Shown here piece by piece: positions 7,385-55,840 of a DNA stretch of 64,000 nucleotides. Each line of letters opens with the position of its first letter. The stretch's first letter is position 1. The stretch lies in NCBI GenBank assembly GCA_000004985.1, contig GG738871.1, one strand, 5' to 3'. The notes beneath the pieces are model-generated. The model saw only the letters and a program-made list of their open reading frames with translations, did no database searches and was not told where the DNA came from. Source of the DNA: Naegleria gruberi. Taxonomy: Eukaryota. The translations under genes were made by a program, and so were the position numbers.

Positions 7385-8716
7385 TTACTTTTTTTTCTTG
7401 AAAACATAGTGAACAAACAACATTTGATCTTGAATTTCCTTCTCAAGAACTTCAAATAAAGAGCTAGGCAAATTGATTTCATTCATATCTGATCTAACAT
7501 TAAGAGTATTGTTAATTTCATCGAGTGTAGAGCAAATATAATTCTTTGCAGAGCTGTCAATCACACTACTTGTAGATTCTTGCATATCACCAAGAATTTC
7601 GAATGCAATTTCAATCTTGGTTTTCTCCAATTTTTGAGTTTCGTCAATGACAGTTGAACCCTTCTTTGGAAGCTTTGCAATGAGTTCACAACATTCCCTG
7701 TAAAAGATACATTTCTCCAATACACTATACTGTTCACCCATATTATTCTTTTCACAATGTTCTCTGAAAAGTTGTCTCTTTGTTGGATCTTTCATTGTTT
7801 CTGCTAATAATTGTGAGTTGAGTGATTGAAGTGTATTCTTTGCTAATCCATCCTTTCTAACCATCATTATAAACACAACTATAGTCACTGGAATAATGAT
7901 AATCAATGAAATTGAAATAATTATCAAATTTGCAATACTTGATCTCACAACATAATCATCGAGAAATTGACCAACTGAAGTAACCGATTGATGAAACTTT
8001 TCATACTGAGCATTCCAATCATTGAGTGCAGCTTGATACTCTGCCGAATAAAACAAACTCTGAGCTAGTTCAAATTGATTGTTTTTCGTATAATTCATCA
8101 ACATTTCATAATAGGGAAACATTGGAACATTCGAAGTCGAATCAGTTCCATTCAATATAGTCCACTTGAACCCAGTTGGCAAATTAGTTAAGATATTCTT
8201 GAAAGAGTTCTTGAAATTCTTGAGATTTGACGTAAATCTCGAATTGGTGGAATTATCTCTTCCAAGCACTGACCACTTCATCGTATCCCATAAAACTGTA
8301 TTGAAATACTTGGCATCACCACGAGCTATGAGAATTTCAATAGAAGTATTATTGGAAGTCAAATAGGTATTGATTGTGAGGCCAATCAAGGCAAAGAATG
8401 CAATAATATTGAAAAATAAACTTCCCAATGTAATAATTCTGAAATAGTTACATGATCTTTTCAATTTTTTAGTGTTTTGGGAAACTATCATGGGAAGCTG
8501 GTTGTTATTGGTGGAGGAAGATTGGATTTTAGACATGTCAGCTGTTGTGGTGTCCAAAGTTTTGGGAGATGTTGGATCAAAGTTTGCTTCATCTTTTAAT
8601 TCAATTGCTTCATAGTCCATTTCGTCTACTGCCACACAACTGGCATTGTCATCATTGTCTTGTTGAGTTGTGTCATCTTGATTGTGTTGTGGAGATTCTT
8701 CCATTTCCTGAGACAT
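7385..8716 (-). CDS. Two-TM sensor-like membrane protein with glycosylatable ectodomain (LIARGDA motif) and C-terminal RGS-like domain; paralog A
   Basis: ATG at 8716. TM1 is ITLGSLFFNIIAFFALIGLTI. A ~150-aa ectodomain follows, with many NxS/T sites and the motif ILIARGDAKYFNTVLWDTM...GRDNS. TM2 is IANLIIISISLIIIIPVTIVVFIMMV. The C-terminal stretch LFREHCEKNNMGEQYSVLEKCIFYRECCEL resembles the RGS-domain core (F..F...E.S.EN..F). It is paralogous to the gene at 9013-10155. Confidence 0.7.
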   Translation of the reverse strand: MSQEMEESPQHNQDDTTQQDNDDNASCVAVDEMDYEAIELKDEANFDPTSPKTLDTTTADMSKIQSSSTNNNQLPMIVSQNTKKLKRSCNYFRIITLGSLFFNIIAFFALIGLTINTYLTSNNTSIEILIARGDAKYFNTVLWDTMKWSVLGRDNSTNSRFTSNLKNFKNSFKNILTNLPTGFKWTILNGTDSTSNVPMFPYYEMLMNYTKNNQFELAQSLFYSAEYQAALNDWNAQYEKFHQSVTSVGQFLDDYVVRSSIANLIIISISLIIIIPVTIVVFIMMVRKDGLAKNTLQSLNSQLLAETMKDPTKRQLFREHCEKNNMGEQYSVLEKCIFYRECCELIAKLPKKGSTVIDETQKLEKTKIEIAFEILGDMQESTSSVIDSSAKNYICSTLDEINNTLNVRSDMNEINLPSSLFEVLEKEIQDQMLFVHYVFKKKK

Positions 8717-9012
8717 ATTTTTTTAAAGTTATTCGAAAGGGCTTTTATTAATATTAATGAATGACTTGTGGATGTAAACACCCAGAAATGTGCATGATTA
8801 TTTCTGTCATCACTTGCCATTAAGAGAAAGCACCTTACTTTGATGTTTTTTATTACGCTCGATAGTTTCGTATGAAATCTTAATTTGTATCTGCACTGTC
8901 TTTAGTTTGCCCATTTTTCTGACACTTTGATAACATCAAGGGCTTTAGATTCTTCACATCTCCCACAATTGACCATTTCATTGCATCTCAAAAAAAAAAC
9001 AAATCAAAAAGA

Positions 9013-47726: not shown

Positions 47727-49989
47727 ATGAATACAATCTTCTTCAACGTTGAAAATAAGCCTATCGCAGCTTTTGCTGTTGTTTACTTGAGTGAACAAAA
47801 AGTAAACTTTAAAGTTTCAAAGAATCCAGGTATCACTTTGGCTGAATCTGCCAGTGGGTAGGTGTCTTTCTTTATTATTATTTTTATAATAATAATAATA
47901 ATTAATTTTATTATTGTTGTTGATGATGATTAAAAAGTGTGAGAGGAAACTTTAATGTTGCTCAAGTTCTTTCAAAGAATACTAAACTCGCAGCTCAAAA
48001 TACTGATGACGTTTTTGTTGCTTTTGAAACTGCTAGTGAAATTGCTAAATCAGGACTTATTGAAGAATTGGATGTTTGCATGCAAAGATTAGATGCTTTA
48101 CTTACAACCAAGACATATTTCTCTGGTGAAGATTTGTCTGTTTGTGATTTGTGTATTTATGAAAGTCTTAAACATCACAAATTAGTTATGGGATATTTGA
48201 AGAGATTTGAAAAATCAATTCCAAATGTTGTTCGTTATTTCTTCACTATTCATAGAAATCCAAAGATTCAACAAGTTGTTAAAATTTTGGATAATGCTGC
48301 TAAAGCTATGACTAGTACTGATGAAGTTTTAAATCCAACTCCTGCTGCAAGGATAACAAGTCAAATTGTGACAAGACTGAAAAGAAGGAATCTCAACCTG
48401 AAATTAATTTGGAACTTCCACATGCTCAAATGGGTAAAGTTGTTACCAGATTCCCACCTGAAGCATCTGGTTTCCTTCATATTGGTCACGCTAAGGCTGC
48501 TTTGATGAATAATTATTTTGCTAAGAAATATAATGGTAAACTTATTATGAGATTTGATGATACTAATCCAGATAAGGAAAGAGAAGAATATGAACATGCT
48601 ATTCTCTCAGATTTGGAAAGTTTAGGTGTTAAACCTGATATTCATGTTCGTTCATCTGATCACTTTGATAAGTGTATTGAATTTGCTGAACAATTGATTA
48701 GAGAAGGAAAGGCTTATATGGATGATACTGCAGTTGAAGAATTGAGAAGAATGAAAATGGAAGGTATTGAATCTGCTAACAGAAATAATTCTGTTGATAA
48801 GAATATGGAAATGTGGAAGGAATTACTTGCTGGTACTGAAAATGGAAAGAAGTCAGTCCTCAGAGCTAAGATTGATATGAAATCATTGAATAAGACTATG
48901 CGTGATCCTGTTCTTTTCAGAAGTAAGGATAAACCTCATCCAAAACTTGGTGATAAGTATAAGGCATATCCAACTTATGACTTTGTTTGTCCAGTTGTTG
49001 ACAGTTTGGATGGTGTTACTCATGCTTTGAGAACTTCTGAATATAACGATAGAAATGAACAATACTATTGGATTATTGATGCTTTGGGTATTAGAAAGCC
49101 ATTCTTGTACGATTTCAGTAGATTGAACTTTGCTAATACTGTCATGTCTAAGCGTAAATTGCAAAAGATTGTTGATATTGGAGTTGTTGAAGGATGGAAT
49201 GATCCTCGTTTCCCAACTGTTCAAGGTCTCTTACGTAGAGGTTTGACTGTTGAAGCTTTGTACAATTTCATTTTGGAACAAGGTGCTTCTCGTAACGTTG
49301 TTACTATTCAATGGGAAAAGTTGTGGGCTGAAAATAAGAAGGTTATTGATCCAAAGGTTCCAAGATATTGTGCTATTGAAAAGACTGATATTGTTAAATT
49401 CCATTTATCAAATGGTCCACAAACTATGGAATCAAAGGAAAATGCAAAGCACAAGAAGAATGATTCTCTTGGTAAGAAGACTACCTATTATACCAATACC
49501 ATTTATTTGGATAGAGAAGATGCTGCTGCCATTGAACAAAATGAAGAAGTTACTTTGATGGATTGGGGTAATGCTATTATTCAAGAAATTGTTAAGGATG
49601 ACAGTGGTAAGGTTGTTGAATTGAAGGGTGTTTTGCACTTGGAAGGTGACTTTAAGAAGACTAAGAAGAAGTTGACTTGGTTGCCAGTTAACCCAGAAGT
49701 TAATACTGAAAATGTTCAAATTGTTCATTTCGGTCATTTGATTAACAAGATTTCTTTATCTTCTGATGATAATATTGAAGATGTTGTTAATCGTAATTCC
49801 AAGACTGTTACTACTTCAATTGGTGATCATAATTTAAAGTCATTGAAGAAGGGTGATATTATTCAATTGGAAAGAAGAGGTTATTTCATTTGTGATGTTC
49901 CATTTGATGGAAAGTCATTGACTTTATTCAATATTCCAGATAGTGTTTCAACAAAGACAACTGCTGCTGCTGCTTCTACTTCTAAATAA
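47727..49989 (+). CDS. gluS: Glutamyl-tRNA synthetase (cytoplasmic-type, GST-like N-terminal domain + class I catalytic core); exons 47727-47857 and 47938-49989; apparent 1-nt frame shift ~48340-48400
   Basis: Exon 1 is MNTIFFNVENKPIAAFAVVYLSEQKVNFKVSKNPGITLAESASG, followed by an 80-nt GTAGGT...aaaaag intron. GST-C-like region: TKTYFSGEDLSVCDLCIYESLKHHKLV.... Then, in the +1 frame: KTEKKESQPEINLELPHAQMGKVVTRFPPEASGFLHIGHAKAALMNNYFAKKYNGKLIMRFDDTNP.... The HIGH motif and the rest of the GluRS core run to stop TAA at 49987. Confidence 0.85.
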
Positions 49990-49993
49990 AAAA

Positions 49994-52900
49994 ATGATAA
50001 ACTCTAAACCAAAGAGTTTACTTCAAATTGCTAAAGATCGGAAAAACAAATTATCATCACAATCTTCTCAATCATCTCAATCATCACAAACATCAAATGA
50101 TAATAATAACACTAATTCATCATCATCATTAACAATATTGAATCATTCTAGTAATACTAGTAGTAATAACAATGTTAATACTACTAATAATATTGGAAAT
50201 AATAGTACTACTACTTCTACTAATAAGACGACATCAACATGTAAATTAATAATTAAACCCAAATCTTCCATTAGACTCTATTCCGAAACTGTTGATTTAT
50301 CATTTGAATATTCAAGTGATAAAGAAAGTGACAATGACGATATTCAAATCATTCATACTCCAGTTAATAAGAAACTTTCAACTCCTTCATCATCACTAAC
50401 ATCACTATCATCAACTACTTCCACTCCATCATCACTTTTAAAATCACTATCATTACTACCAAATAATAATAATAACATGACCACTTTAAAAACCACAACT
50501 AAGAATGAAATATCAAATAATAATAATAATTTATCATCATCATTATCAACATCTACAAATTTAATAGTAGAAACATATAGTTCATTATTAGAAGATTTAA
50601 CTCAACAAGATGATGATATAAATAGTAATTCATTAAATATAAATAGTAATTCATTAAATATTAAAGAACCATTAATTAAAAAAAGAAAACAATTTAAAAT
50701 TCCAAGTTTTTACATGACAGATGAAGAAATTAAACATGACATTTCTTTATCTAAAACAATAATTCCAATTTTAAATATTCAAGATAAATTTTCAATTCAT
50801 TTTACAAAACCATTTTGGACAATTTATAAAGATGGAAATGAAATTCTATTATTAGATTTTAGAAAACCAATATTTACAAATTTATTATTTTTAAAATTAA
50901 TTTATTATTTTAATTTTAATAAAACTAAAATAATTGAAAAATCTAAATTTATACATTCAATTAAAGATTTAATTATTTTATTAAAACCATATAGTACTTT
51001 ATTAGTAAATAATGAAAATTTAGAACAATTAAAAAAGGAAATTGAAATTATTTTAAATGAAGATTTAAAAAATAATTTTATAGAAAATGAAAATGTAAAA
51101 TATGTAAATAATTTTCAATATTTAATTTTAGAATATTTAAATACAAATATTCATAAATTTAAAAATACTAAAAAATCTAGAAATTTAAGAAAATTAAGAA
51201 TGTGTGAAGAATTACTAAAAAAGGAATTTAATTCTAAATTTATAAAAAGTTTTGAAAAATCTGAAAATTCATTTTATTCAGATTTTAATTTTAATTTATA
51301 TGATTTCATGTCAATTTATTTTAATAAGGAAAAATTTGAATATTTAAATCTAAATGAAATTGATTTTAATAATTCCATAAAAGAATTTCATAAAATTTTA
51401 AATGAACTCATCATTTCAACTATATACTATAATAAGGGTCAATATATAGGTGATATTATAGCAACAAATTTATTAAAAAAATCCATAAAAAATAATACTA
51501 CTATATATGGCAGTGAATACCAAAATAGTAATAATGATGAAAAACAACACCAATATTATATTAATAGTGATAATAGTGATAATGATGATAGTGATGATAG
51601 TGATAGTGATGAAGAAGAAGAAGAAGAAGAAAATGAAATAATTCTAGATAGTCATATTCCACATGGATTTGGAAGTTGGAAATTTATAGAAGAAAATAAT
51701 GAAATTTTCTATAAAGGGGAATGGAAAAAAGGGAAAAAGGAAGGATTTGGTATTTTACAAACATTTGAAATATTATATGAAGGAGAATGGAAAGAGAATG
51801 AAATGAATGGATTTGGAATATTTAAAATATTAAATGGATATCATAAAGGTAGTATTTATTATGGTAATTTTAAAAAAGGAAAGAGAAATGGATTTGGAAT
51901 TCAATTTTATAAATATGAAGGAAATAATGAAATATTAAAAGATGATTTGAATGAATTTAATGAATTTTATAGAGGTGAATGGTTAAATGATGTTAGAAAT
52001 GGAAAAGGTGAATTTAAATCAAAATATGAATGGAAATTGGGAGAATGGAAAAAACATGAATTTAAAAATGGAATTTTACTAATTAAGGAATGTTTAGAAA
52101 TTCAAGATTCAATCATTACAAATTGTATTCATTCACAAATAGAAATTGAAAAATATTCAAAAAAAACAAAAAAATCTCAAATTCCTTCAACTATACTTCC
52201 ATTTATATTTTCATTAGATAATTTAGATAAATTAACAGTTGTAGATGCAATTATTGCATATGGTAATCAATCTAAATCACCTAAACGTACAATTTATAAT
52301 GGTTATTGTTTTAGATCAAAATTGGAAAGTCGTTGGGCTAAATTCTTTGAATGTTGTGGAATTGAATATCAATACGAATGTAAAACTTTTATTTTAAAAG
52401 ATGGAACATCATATACTCCTGATTTTTATTTACCTTTTCTCAATTTTTGGATTGAAATTAAACCAAATTATCCAAGTGAAGAAGAAAGAGTTAAAGCTCA
52501 ATTATTAAGTTTTGTTTTACAAAAACAGACTAGTAATAATAATCAACATAATGAATTGACAGAATTTGAAAAGAAATATGAAAGATATTTACAATCAAAT
52601 CCAAGAATTTTCATTTTATATGGAGATGTTAGTGCTCCATTTATTAAGAAATTTCAATCAGGAGGAATGGCAATTGAATTTTTCAAAACAGATCAACAAG
52701 AAAATTCTATTCAGAATAGAACAAATAAGAGAATTACACCTCCAAGGAGTGGCAATACTACTTCTACTACCAGTAATCCAATTAGAGAATCTGTTCTATT
52801 TAATACTACTGAACCATTGGGCTGGTGTCAATGTCATCATTGTGGTAAAATTTCACTTGAATATAGATGTAAACCCAAGTGTTGTACTAACAAGACAGCA

Positions 52901-53098
52901 GATAATAGTACTGCTTCGACAAGTTTAGTTGATTCAGTGGTGACATCAGAGCTTGGTCCAACTTTGAGTAATGCTTATTATGCAGTTACCAAATTATCGT
53001 TTGATGAATGGAGAGTGAGAAATGAAAATACATTCTTTAACAGTATAACACAAGAGATTGAAATTACAACAGAAAAGAAACGAAGTAAATTCTTTTAA
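49994..53098 (+). CDS. Large protein with S/N/T-rich N-terminal half, MORN repeats and a C-terminal PD-(D/E)xK-nuclease-like/zinc-binding region
   Basis: ATG at 49994, 4 nt after the GluRS stop. MORN repeats: YKGEWKKGKKEGFGIL, YEGEWKENEMNGFGIF, YYGNFKKGKRNGFGIQFY, YRGEWLNDVRNGKGEF, LGEWKKHEFKNGILL. C-terminal block: NGYCFRSKLESRWAKFFECCGIEYQYECKTF...GTSYTPDFYLPFLNFWIEIKPN (E...D...E-x-K order), then CQCHHCGKISLEYRCKPKCC. Confidence 0.6.
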   Translation: MINSKPKSLLQIAKDRKNKLSSQSSQSSQSSQTSNDNNNTNSSSSLTILNHSSNTSSNNNVNTTNNIGNNSTTTSTNKTTSTCKLIIKPKSSIRLYSETVDLSFEYSSDKESDNDDIQIIHTPVNKKLSTPSSSLTSLSSTTSTPSSLLKSLSLLPNNNNNMTTLKTTTKNEISNNNNNLSSSLSTSTNLIVETYSSLLEDLTQQDDDINSNSLNINSNSLNIKEPLIKKRKQFKIPSFYMTDEEIKHDISLSKTIIPILNIQDKFSIHFTKPFWTIYKDGNEILLLDFRKPIFTNLLFLKLIYYFNFNKTKIIEKSKFIHSIKDLIILLKPYSTLLVNNENLEQLKKEIEIILNEDLKNNFIENENVKYVNNFQYLILEYLNTNIHKFKNTKKSRNLRKLRMCEELLKKEFNSKFIKSFEKSENSFYSDFNFNLYDFMSIYFNKEKFEYLNLNEIDFNNSIKEFHKILNELIISTIYYNKGQYIGDIIATNLLKKSIKNNTTIYGSEYQNSNNDEKQHQYYINSDNSDNDDSDDSDSDEEEEEEENEIILDSHIPHGFGSWKFIEENNEIFYKGEWKKGKKEGFGILQTFEILYEGEWKENEMNGFGIFKILNGYHKGSIYYGNFKKGKRNGFGIQFYKYEGNNEILKDDLNEFNEFYRGEWLNDVRNGKGEFKSKYEWKLGEWKKHEFKNGILLIKECLEIQDSIITNCIHSQIEIEKYSKKTKKSQIPSTILPFIFSLDNLDKLTVVDAIIAYGNQSKSPKRTIYNGYCFRSKLESRWAKFFECCGIEYQYECKTFILKDGTSYTPDFYLPFLNFWIEIKPNYPSEEERVKAQLLSFVLQKQTSNNNQHNELTEFEKKYERYLQSNPRIFILYGDVSAPFIKKFQSGGMAIEFFKTDQQENSIQNRTNKRITPPRSGNTTSTTSNPIRESVLFNTTEPLGWCQCHHCGKISLEYRCKPKCCTNKTADNSTASTSLVDSVVTSELGPTLSNAYYAVTKLSFDEWRVRNENTFFNSITQEIEITTEKKRSKFF

Positions 53099-53117: not shown

Positions 53118-55840
53118 TTACACCATTACAGATGTTTCACTCAAATCCTCTTCATTGAAAAACGAGTCATCCTCAAGCAGTCTATTCAATACTTGAATGG
53201 TTCTATCCTTATCTGCTACAACTTCGAATAATTTAGCATTCTCTAACTTTAACTGTTTGAGTTGCTCGTCTATCGACATGTTATCTCGTTTAAGGATATC
53301 CAATTTAGAGCTCACCTCTTCAGTTCCCTCTTTAATGCTTGCCAATCTGTCTTGATGATTTCTTTGAATTTCCTTTTCCTGATTACTTCTTTCTAATTCA
53401 AGCTTTACAAAAATGTTATCTAATAAATCAACAATTGAAATCATTTCATGATCTTGAGCAAATATTTCCTCAATTTCCTTTGAAGGTGTTAAAGAGAGGG
53501 AATAATAAATAGATTTAAGCTTATTGAATATTTCCTTTCTATCTTCTAACATTTTTGATTTTTCTTCAGAGTATAATTGTTTTGAGGCATCATATTCATG
53601 TTTATGAAATTCTTCCTTTTCCTCAAGATTTCTAATCAAAGTTCTTGCTTCTATTAATTCTAATTCTTTTGAATCTAATCTATCTGTTTTACTTCTCAAC
53701 TTGACTTTATATTTTGGAATTCTAGATGAAGCTTCTTGTAATTGTTTTCTCAACATTACAATTTCTCTTTCATAAGCTTCTTTCATTGCTTTGATAGAAT
53801 CATTATCCTCATCCTCTTCAGATGATGATTCATATTCAATTTCTTCTTTATGTTCTTTATGATCCTCAAGTGATAATTCATTCTTATCAATTATAATCTA
53901 TAAAGTTAGCTATTGAAAGAATAATTTACATACATTTGATTTTAAGAAATCATAGTGATCATTTCCAATTATTTTAGCAAGATCCATAGAGACACCCCTA
54001 GTGAACTTTGGTTTTGCCTTTGGTTGTGGTACAACAGATTTTGATTCAGTAATTGGTGCAGTTTGAGGTGGTGTTTGTGGTGTTGGTATTTGAGATGTGA
54101 TTGGTTTTTTAGGTGAATCTTCTCTCTTTGTTGGTGAAGTAGTACTATTAGTTAATAAGCTACCTATAGTATTTGGAATGTTGTTACTCGTTGGTGGTTG
54201 TTGATTAATTACAGATTGTTGTGAGTGTGTTGGTGTTGTAGTTGGTGTTGTTGAATTAGTTGTTGAGAAAGTCGTAGATATAGTTGGAGATACCTCAATG
54301 ACAGGTGTTGTTGTTGATTGAACATGAGTAGTTGGTTCAACATCTGATTGTAAATTAGTTTTTGGTTCTGGACTTGCTAAAGGTTCACCTTCACATTCCC
54401 AAATTCTAACCTTATTATCTGAACAAAAAGCAAATATTCTTTGATTGGGTAATTCAATCATATCAACAACTGAAACTGAATTTGCTTTAATCTTCTTGAT
54501 GGCTTTCAAAGTACTCGACTCAAATATATGAATTACCTTATCATCACCACAACTCCACACTTGCTTATTTGTTGCTAGTATTTTGTTAATGGTACTTTCG
54601 TGAGCTTTGATTTCCTTAATACATTTCATCTTTTCACAATCCCAAATTCTTAATTTACCCTCACTATTGCATGTCCAAATATTTAAACCAGAATTAATAA
54701 TCTGTTTTGAATTAATCATGGATGGCATATCTTTAACAATTTTACCATCTATGGAATCTCTAATTTTAATTTGGCCATCATCAGATAAAATCCAAACCTG
54801 ATTAAATTTTTCCAAATAAACCATACCAACTATTGGAGATTGTTCTGATAAAATTTGAATTGGTTGAAATGTGTCAGCATCTAAAATTCGAATAGTTCTA
54901 TCCATTGATGATGTCCAAATATATCTTTTAGATGTAATAGTATTTACAATGCATAATATTTGTGTAACAGTTGCTGAATGACAATCAAACTCGAATACCT
55001 TATTAATTGTAACTGCATCCCATATAATTATTTTACCATTACTGAAACCTGTCCAAACTGTACAATCAACTTGTTTAGAAAATGATTTTACAACTGTCAT
55101 GGCTGTAAATGTTAACTTGGATATTTCATTTAAAGGTCCATTAGTTGATACTCTTCTAAAATCTAAATTATTTAAATTACTTTTCACATCATAAATACAA
55201 AATTGTCCTTCAGATCCACCTGTCCAAATAGATCCTGTTTTTTCTACATAACAAACACAATTTACATCTCCTTGCTTGAATACATTCTTAAAGGTATTAA
55301 TTAATTCTCCTGTTCTTCCTATATTTATATTCGAATCTATTGTTGGTGATGAACATCTTGGTGTTGAAGGTGCAGAATTTTTTGATCCCTTTTCAGCTAA
55401 TAAGGGAATTCCCTTTTTTTGTTGTGGTGTTGGTATTGGTGATGCTGCAGAGATGAGATTTGATGAAGAATTATTATTACTATTGGTCAATGCTGTAAAT
55501 GGTTAATATTGAGAGAAATAATATAGATCCTTACTTTTCTTTGTTGTTGAAACCACTGGATTCGATTTGGTGACTTGAAAAGATCAATACTAAGAAATAC
55601 TGAGAAAATTACCTACCTCCAGGAGTTGAGAAAGGCTTTAATTTTGATGAAGGTGTTTTCGGAGTAACTTTTATAATGATAATAAGGCCATGACCATCAT
55701 CTATAAAACATACCTAAATTTGTTGATGATGAAACTCCTCCACTCGTCATTCCTGTTGTTGATGTCGCTGCTGCTGATGTCGTTGATGAATTTGATACGC
55801 CACTTAAATTACTTGTATTAAGGAGATGACGTCGATTCAT
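53118..55840 (-). CDS. WD40-repeat protein with Ser/Thr/Pro-rich N-terminus and C-terminal coiled coil; 5 exons (55714-55840, 55617-55667, 55535-55573, 53934-55492, 53118-53897)
   Basis: Exon 1 is MNRRHLLNTSNLSGVSNSSTTSAAATSTTGMTSGGVSSSTNL. Three micro-introns of 46, 43 and 42 nt (GTATGT, GTAGGT, GTAAGG donors) lead to ...TLTNSNNNSSS.... At least 7 WD blades follow (WTGGSEGQFCIYD; WTGFSNGKIIIWD; IWTSSMDRTIRILD; IWTCNSEGKLRIWD; VWSCGDDKVIHIF; FCSDNKVRIWE...). A 36-nt intron (AAT|GTATGT...ctttatag) joins to the coiled-coil exon ...EREIVMLRKQLQEASSRIPK...LKLENAKLFEVV.... Confidence 0.7.

Follow-up and report, generated by a model that had tools for sequence, protein, structure and literature searches.

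What is a nuclease-like module doing at the end of a protein built around MORN repeats? This question is raised by one gene in a 64,000-nucleotide stretch of Naegleria gruberi DNA (GenBank assembly GCA_000004985.1, contig GG738871.1), referred to here as the window. The gene lies within a single uninterrupted open reading frame (ORF) at 49943..53098 on the plus strand, read in the standard code, and translation from its first ATG at 49994 to the stop codon ending at 53098 yields a protein of 1,034 residues (Table 1). An earlier reading of the letters alone (the original prediction) had placed a PD-(D/E)xK-type nuclease module and a cysteine (Cys) cluster behind the MORN repeats of this protein, and this arrangement is supported by sequence profiles, by the predicted fold and by residue conservation. 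Our best full explanation, to which we give somewhat better than even chances, is that the last ~270 residues of a host protein constitute a phage-type branched-DNA nuclease module with its catalytic residues intact. The module is most likely a Mg-dependent endonuclease that is selective for branched DNA and was acquired from phage.

All of the strings on which the prediction had been built were found in the translation (LESRWAKFFE, YTPDFYLP, WIEIKPN and WCQCHHCGKISLEYRCKPKCC), and they are ordered as E778...D810...E821-x-K823 followed by the cluster CQCHHCGKISLEYRCKPKCC. Of the four predicted catalytic residues, E778 lies in LESRWAKFFE (codon 52325-52327) and D810 in YTPDFYLP (52421-52423), while WIEIKPN carries both E821 (52454-52456) and K823 (52460-52462). 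All four are invariant in an alignment (A1, also the basis of the family profile) of 21 members, 10 from eukaryotes and 11 from prokaryotes or phages. When the comparison was widened to 258 family proteins, the E/D/E/K set was retained in every aligned core apart from two substitutions of the D, one of an E and one of the K. At the sequence level, the residue order that marks the PD-(D/E)xK superfamily is confirmed, and the nuclease motif is far beyond what chance would produce.

Profile searches pointed to the phage enzymes that resolve or cut DNA junctions. PHROG 21138 was matched over the full length of the family profile with E=9e-21 (76.4 bits) and PHROG 9019, which is named 'Holliday junction resolvase', with E=4e-10. 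Among proteins of solved structure, T7 endonuclease I (gp3; 1M0D, 1FZR, 2PFJ; PF05367) was the only family detected by sequence, with E=0.0036 for the single sequence and E=1.4e-6 when the family profile was used. Its residues E20, D55, E65 and K67 align with E778, D810, E821 and K823 (HMMER against 1M0D and 2PFJ, family profile). The two proteins have an identical order and spacing of the motifs F-R-S-x-L-E, Y-T-P-D-F and E-x-K, and the helix and strand that come next can also be aligned (EEERVKAQLL...RIFILYG versus SDDRKKHLLI...IRIVFSS). On the other hand, T7 gp3 has no counterpart of the Cys-rich hairpin and terminal helix of the window protein, whose module, unlike the phage enzyme, forms the end of a 1,034-residue eukaryotic multidomain protein.

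The domain had originally been likened to the Hjc, Vsr and DUF559 nucleases. This likeness was upheld at the level of the fold and did not extend to sequence, where T7 endonuclease I comes closest among the characterised enzymes. Hjc models gave no sequence-level match at E<=10 in Pfam and PDB sequence searches, and sequence did not place the module in the archaeal Hjc, Vsr or DUF559 families. Resemblance to archaeal Hjc (1GEF, 2WCW, 1HH1) is confined to the fold, with only 12-17% identity, and Hjc has neither a zinc ribbon nor MORN repeats. The AlphaFold model of the C-terminal module (pLDDT 79.4, pTM 0.76) is a compact, unswapped monomer that displays the restriction-endonuclease-like alpha-beta-beta-beta-alpha-beta core and matches Hjc, TnsA and restriction-endonuclease-like structures; the structure-match scores were 7.3 for BpuSI, 7.1 for a restriction-endonuclease-like protein, 7.0 for TnsA and 5.6 for Vsr. 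Structure prediction had been proposed as a check on the nuclease assignment, and a nuclease-type fold is what it returned. A Foldseek search of the model against the PDB gave no match at E<=1e-3, and T7 endonuclease I was not among the results; we suspect that it was missed owing to the difference between its domain-swapped chains and the compact monomer of the model. In BFVD the best matches were to phage proteins that bear the names endonuclease I or Holliday junction resolvase; the first of them had E=7.9e-10 and extended over 256 alignment columns. Support for a nuclease is in our view strong from sequence comparison and moderate from the predicted fold.

The cluster of the form CxCxxC...CxxxCC that had been reported behind the nuclease is likewise present. 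Three of its residues, C947, C950 and C964 (C187, C190 and C204 in A1 numbering), are invariant from phage to amoeba in alignment A1, and the position of a fourth ligand is filled by a neighboring Cys or His. In the larger family set, Cys is kept at the conserved positions in 190-194 of about 204 aligned sequences, or about 93% of the proteins that have the C-terminal module. The cluster forms a hairpin in the model (strands 177-186 and 193-197, model numbering; pLDDT about 94) and is probably a zinc ribbon, zinc binding being a prediction from these features. The helix beyond it (229-239, pLDDT about 96) contains A234, invariant in A1, and F243, which is nearly so. The Cys cluster already belonged to the ancestral phage module and is no separate addition. 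Because both the cluster and the helix are conserved from phage to eukaryote, the unit that was acquired would have comprised nuclease core, zinc ribbon and helix together.

The family behind this module is very large. An exhaustive HMMER search, counting representatives of clusters at 50% identity, returned 12,502 proteins at E<=1e-3 and 3,585 at E<=1e-10; a single-sequence word-index search found only 2 relatives and so badly under-reported the family. The 7,994 clusters that a profile search returned at E<=1e-10 are nearly all without a name or a Pfam domain. Nearly all relatives are stand-alone proteins of about 170-250 residues from metagenomes, nearly always annotated as 'hypothetical protein', and no Pfam family scored above threshold for this phage and metagenome family. 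The labels carried by phage homologs in GenBank are 'Holliday junction resolvase', 'T7-like endonuclease' and 'endonuclease I'. In phages the module stands alone (~200 residues) within replication and recombination gene blocks; for example, gp74 of Mycobacterium phage Beakin is encoded directly after a RepA-like initiator, a helicase loader and a DnaB-like helicase. At least 569 IMG/VR viral contigs carry a homolog. Homology between the window protein and the phage family (PHROG 21138, 9019 and 945; Beakin gp74; APQ42460 of Pasteurella phage PMP-GADVASU-IND) extends over the whole three-part module, that is, the nuclease core, the C-x2-C...C cluster and the A-Y...A...F helix. The eukaryotic copies are set apart from these stand-alone proteins by their own Y-T-P-D-F cluster, by a PF-x-KK...AIEF segment and a C-terminal S-K-F-F motif, and by their fusion to MORN repeats and a middle domain. 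An origin from giant viruses was considered and rejected, as the matches in BFVD and IMG/VR were all tailed-phage proteins or phage-sized contigs.

Although the fusion of MORN repeats to a nuclease had been noticed in the window, it is not unique to it, and belongs to a conserved protist gene family. The closest full-length relatives are the 'hypothetical proteins' KAL9645842 of Willaertia magna (1,443 residues; 43% identity from the MORN array through the nuclease by BLASTP) and XP_044552706 of Naegleria lovaniensis (776 residues; 67% identity over the N-terminal half of the nuclease). The same layout, consisting of a variable N-terminus, the middle domain, MORN repeats, a linker and the nuclease with its putative zinc ribbon, is found in these two species and in at least seven proteins from uncultured eukaryotes (P0001/L001, P0005, P0006, P0008, P0009, P0011 and P0073). 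A spliceosomal-type intron (GTAAGT...AG) interrupts the L001 ortholog. In the family set assembled here, 15 eukaryote-type cores cluster apart from all prokaryote- and phage-type cores, and the signature Y-T-[PI]-D-F is exclusive to these 15, with Y-L-P-D-F present in 235 of the 236 others. An exclusively eukaryotic cluster with a signature of its own would fit a single acquisition from a phage or bacterium. The gene order is also conserved: a glutamyl-tRNA synthetase (GluRS) gene, the nuclease gene and a convergent WD40/coiled-coil gene follow one another identically in the window, N. lovaniensis and W. magna. Because the same neighbors flank it at all three heterolobosean loci, we conclude that this is a vertically inherited host gene and not a mobile insertion or a contaminant. 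A further eukaryote-type nuclease and Cys module was observed at the end of a 973-residue protein, P0126, encoded on an AT-rich eukaryotic metagenome contig (L007 4001-6922). The N-terminal region of P0126 contains no MORN repeats and no Pfam domain, and the module has therefore been joined to at least two different N-terminal regions in eukaryotes.

The MORN array itself is well defined. With Pfam PF02493 it reached 41.2 bits, where the cut-off is 22.5, in 4 scored stretches (E=1.1e-10), and about five full YxGxWxxGxxxGxG units can be made out by eye, in line with the five repeats that had been claimed, plus one that is split by an acidic insert. This insert (51569-51637) is rich in D, E and S, is species-specific and lies inside the first unit; it has low pLDDT and is missing from most orthologs. 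The stretch is modeled by AlphaFold as a regular beta-hairpin array (model residues 317-491, pLDDT 80-95), and its Gly, Trp and Tyr columns are invariant across the MORN-array alignment. The original prediction had described the repeats as membrane-tethering. This is an unsafe inference, because the one systematic structural study of MORN proteins observed dimerisation, and lipid binding was not detected or reproduced in vitro (PMC7725318). The repeats probably serve in dimerisation or partner binding rather than in tethering to membranes. MORN1, MORN4, the junctophilins and SETD7 share with the window protein the same repeat, which in the latter scores above the Pfam threshold and is predicted to form an elongated beta-hairpin sheet; their arrays mediate dimerisation or partner binding, and none of them carries a nuclease.

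The N-terminal region of the protein closes with a basic KKRK patch (50672-50695) that has counterparts in N. lovaniensis (KRKK) and W. magna (KKLKKLK) and could be a nuclear localisation signal. Inspection of the protein sequence revealed no signal peptide or hydrophobic N-terminus and, together with the conserved patch, this suggests a nuclear or cytosolic protein. At the other end, most eukaryotic orthologs finish in a [KR]-S-[KR]-[FY]-[FW] motif, which reads KKRSKFF in the window protein and SKFFQ, SKYF, SRYF, SRFF or SKYW elsewhere. This tail, which in the alignments is missing from the phage relatives and from the P0006/P0011 clade, looks like a short docking motif.

As to substrate, metal dependence, oligomeric state and cellular location, we infer a mechanism of the following kind. 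A single phage-type copy would have been acquired by a eukaryote and fused behind the middle domain and the MORN beta-hairpin array. The site formed by E778, D810, E821 and K823 would bind Mg2+ and cleave the phosphodiester backbone of DNA that is branched or distorted, for example at four-way junctions, forks and flaps. Endonuclease I forms an obligate homodimer by domain swapping, with active sites that are composite, and the eukaryotic enzyme may likewise act as a dimer, with the putative zinc ribbon and the helix adding contacts to DNA or between subunits. The MORN array and middle domain could then provide self-association or recruit partners, and in this way regulate the place and timing of nuclease action, probably in the nucleus. 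A bolder version of the proposal, which we regard as doubtful, is that this domesticated phage enzyme of the endonuclease I type is a genuine cellular resolvase of Holliday junctions and branched DNA in heteroloboseans and several uncultured protists, that it is unrelated to GEN1/Yen1, MUS81-EME1, SLX1-SLX4, Cce1 and MOC1, and that it is controlled through a MORN-mediated dimer or partner and the S-K-F-F docking motif.

An active nuclease need not be a junction enzyme. The module might degrade foreign or unwanted DNA, be it that of bacterial prey, of phages or of giant viruses, or DNA discarded during programmed DNA elimination, with the MORN array and middle domain directing it to a partner or to a particular compartment. 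We think this unlikely. A degradative or defensive DNase of this kind finds little encouragement in the inspected N-terminus, where a signal peptide or hydrophobic segment was not visible, and the conserved gene order and single copy in the window look like those of a housekeeping-type gene rather than of a fast-evolving defense gene. A role in anti-phage defense was set aside, since neither the full protein nor a phage relative gave a match to any PADLOC defense model. It is also conceivable that the domain is directed at RNA, in the way of some other proteins of the PD-(D/E)xK fold such as RAP domains and tRNA-splicing endonucleases, and takes part in RNA processing in an organelle or in the nucleus. 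This appears very unlikely, given that the matches to RNA enzymes are at the level of the fold only (3-15% identity) and that sequence homology is solely to DNA junction nucleases. Moreover, the full metal-binding E/D/ExK site has been retained; tRNA-splicing endonucleases use a different, metal-independent catalytic set.

The chances are slimmer still that the module is inactive or vestigial, persisting only as a DNA-binding domain or scaffold, or that the gene is decaying. The Naegleria copies do contain long low-complexity inserts, and in the N. lovaniensis annotation a frameshift within the domain ends the protein early: XP_044552706 stops in ...AQLLADF because of a 1-nucleotide shift in a T5 run (L004 8320-8335, PYSW02000009.1). 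However, beyond the shift the N. lovaniensis ORF (8328-8855, in the next frame) stays open for 175 codons and keeps every conserved motif intact; it encodes the remainder of the nuclease, the Cys cluster and a ...KSKFF end. A T5 homopolymer fits an assembly error, and we consider the frameshift to be probably an error of assembly or sequencing. In addition, the four catalytic residues together with C947, C950 and C964 do not vary across deeply diverged eukaryotic copies. The least probable of the explanations is that we are dealing with a selfish or recently inserted element, such as a homing endonuclease, a fragment of an endogenous phage or giant virus, or contaminating phage DNA. The nuclease is fused in frame to eukaryotic-type MORN repeats and low-complexity regions within a 1,034-codon ORF of host-like base composition (the window is AT-rich, with about 28-36% GC). 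It has the same flanking genes in three heterolobosean genomes and a spliceosomal-type intron in the L001 ortholog, and searches found no second copy of the module within the 64,000-nucleotide window and no giant-virus matches in BFVD. The conservation of residues and of gene order is thus the reason for disfavoring both an inactive scaffold and a selfish element.

Several observations nevertheless weigh against a branched-DNA nuclease of phage origin, or against parts of that explanation. The score for Pfam Phage_endo_I (PF05367; 21.0 bits, E=2.7e-4) is below the gathering cut-off of 29.1. The orthologs score 16-23.5 bits and the phage relatives 11-21 bits with the same model, and the protein is best described, on the basis of these comparisons, as belonging to a sister family of T7 endonuclease I rather than as a member of the curated one. 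The 'resolvase' labels of the phage proteins are themselves based on homology. Our model is of a monomer only, so that the domain swap seen in endonuclease I is not represented in it. Two low-complexity inserts interrupt the module in Naegleria, one between core and Cys cluster (52685-52822) and one inside the nuclease core (roughly 52515-52600) that is Naegleria-specific, has low pLDDT and is missing from most orthologs. The N. lovaniensis frameshift, if real, could mean that the gene is dispensable. Finally, the middle domain (50705-51427) has no detectable relatives: it gave no Pfam match, and a profile of it found nothing below E=0.2 among PDB sequences. The same profile returned zero matches from a collection of 5.8 billion proteins, a search that likewise missed the known orthologs and is uninformative, and the AlphaFold model of the domain was of low confidence (pLDDT 25-65) and too poor for a fold search.

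Table 1. Features of the MORN-nuclease gene, in coordinates of the window.
Feature	Coordinates	Strand	Evidence and remarks
Complete coding sequence	49994..53098	+	1,034 residues plus stop, no intron required; ORF list, translation, ortholog alignments over middle domain, MORN repeats and nuclease
Low-complexity N-terminal region, N/S/T-rich, non-conserved	49994..50704	+	ORF list, alignments, translation
Conserved middle domain, motifs F-x-I-x-F-T-x-P-F-W-T and KPIF...FLK	50705..51427	+	Alignments A2, A3 and A5; common to all eukaryotic orthologs
MORN repeat array	51428..52084	+	Pfam PF02493, AlphaFold hairpins, invariant Gly/Trp/Tyr columns
Linker with conserved motif KKSQIPSTILP	52085..52288	+	Alignment A2, BLASTP against W. 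magna
PD-(D/E)xK nuclease core, T7-endonuclease-I type	52289..52684	+	Catalytic codons E778, D810, E821 and K823
Low-complexity insert between nuclease core and Cys cluster	52685..52822	+	Alignment A1, pLDDT about 55; missing from most relatives
Cys cluster WCQCHHCGKISLEYRCKPKCC (C945, C947, C950, C959, C963, C964)	52823..52885	+	Alignment A1, conservation, predicted beta-hairpin
C-terminal helix LSNAYYAVTKLSFDEW	52964..53011	+	Homolog of phage motif L-x-x-A-Y-x-A-A-R-x-A-R-F-E
Basic/aromatic tail motif KKRSKFF	53075..53095	+	Alignments A1 and A4; second ORF of N. lovaniensis

The boundaries of the gene were also revised. The span first proposed for the feature, 52200-53098, correctly covers part of the linker, the nuclease and the Cys cluster, but the whole gene begins about 2.2 kb further upstream. 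Its start codon is uncertain, because the ATG lies only 4 nucleotides past the stop of the upstream GluRS gene on the same strand (window 49987-49996) and because the first ~235 residues are of low complexity and not conserved. This GluRS is 86% identical to that of N. lovaniensis. In W. magna the GluRS and nuclease genes overlap as ATGA (L003 8316-8319), and in N. lovaniensis they are separated by about 60 nucleotides (L004 5938-6001). With the two genes packed so tightly, the GluRS coding region must contain the 5' end and the promoter of the nuclease gene, unless both genes are co-transcribed. The W. magna model KAL9645842 merges the nuclease gene with the upstream GluRS despite their different frames, and both this and the N. 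lovaniensis public gene model appear to be wrong. A programmed frameshift or readthrough joining GluRS to the nuclease ORF, suggested by the W. magna fusion model, was rejected, since the two sequences differ in frame offset, which is +1 in the window but -1 in W. magna. On the downstream side, a coiled-coil ORF (53118-53786) and a WD40 ORF (53910-55490) lie on the minus strand. They are probably two exons of one convergent gene, because their counterpart is a single contiguous ORF in W. magna (L003 10520-11893) and a single 759-residue model in N. lovaniensis; the stop of this gene is 19 nucleotides from that of the nuclease gene. At the N-terminus of the non-heterolobosean orthologs an F-box-like motif (...ICEFI...L..INHHWY...) was seen (P0009 residues ~85-135; L001 ~8150-8300; P0005 N-terminus), where the window protein has low-complexity sequence and nothing comparable. 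Assignment as an F-box was not retained, the Pfam match being below threshold (E=0.018, 15.4 versus 20.5 bits).

The combination of MORN repeats with a nuclease had been called undescribed, and within the limits of the literature searched this is apparently so. In a survey of the PD-(D/E)xK superfamily from 2012, endonuclease I is entered under 'Prokaryota & phages' only, and there is no mention of MORN repeats or of Naegleria (PMC3424549). Full-text searches that combined MORN repeats with endonuclease I, Holliday junctions or Naegleria nucleases gave no relevant result. The gene models of N. lovaniensis and W. magna could now be corrected. The phage module, extremely abundant with its more than 12,500 clusters at 50% identity, has no name, and giving it one and testing it would lead to better annotation for thousands of phage genomes. 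A soluble nuclease bearing MORN repeats also offers a way to ask whether these repeats are a device for dimerisation and recruitment or a membrane anchor. Should the protein prove active, the short list of eukaryotic junction-processing nucleases would gain an enzyme of the T7 endonuclease I type derived from phage, and the gene would provide a clear case in which a phage gene, after a single capture, became part of a large eukaryotic protein with several domains.

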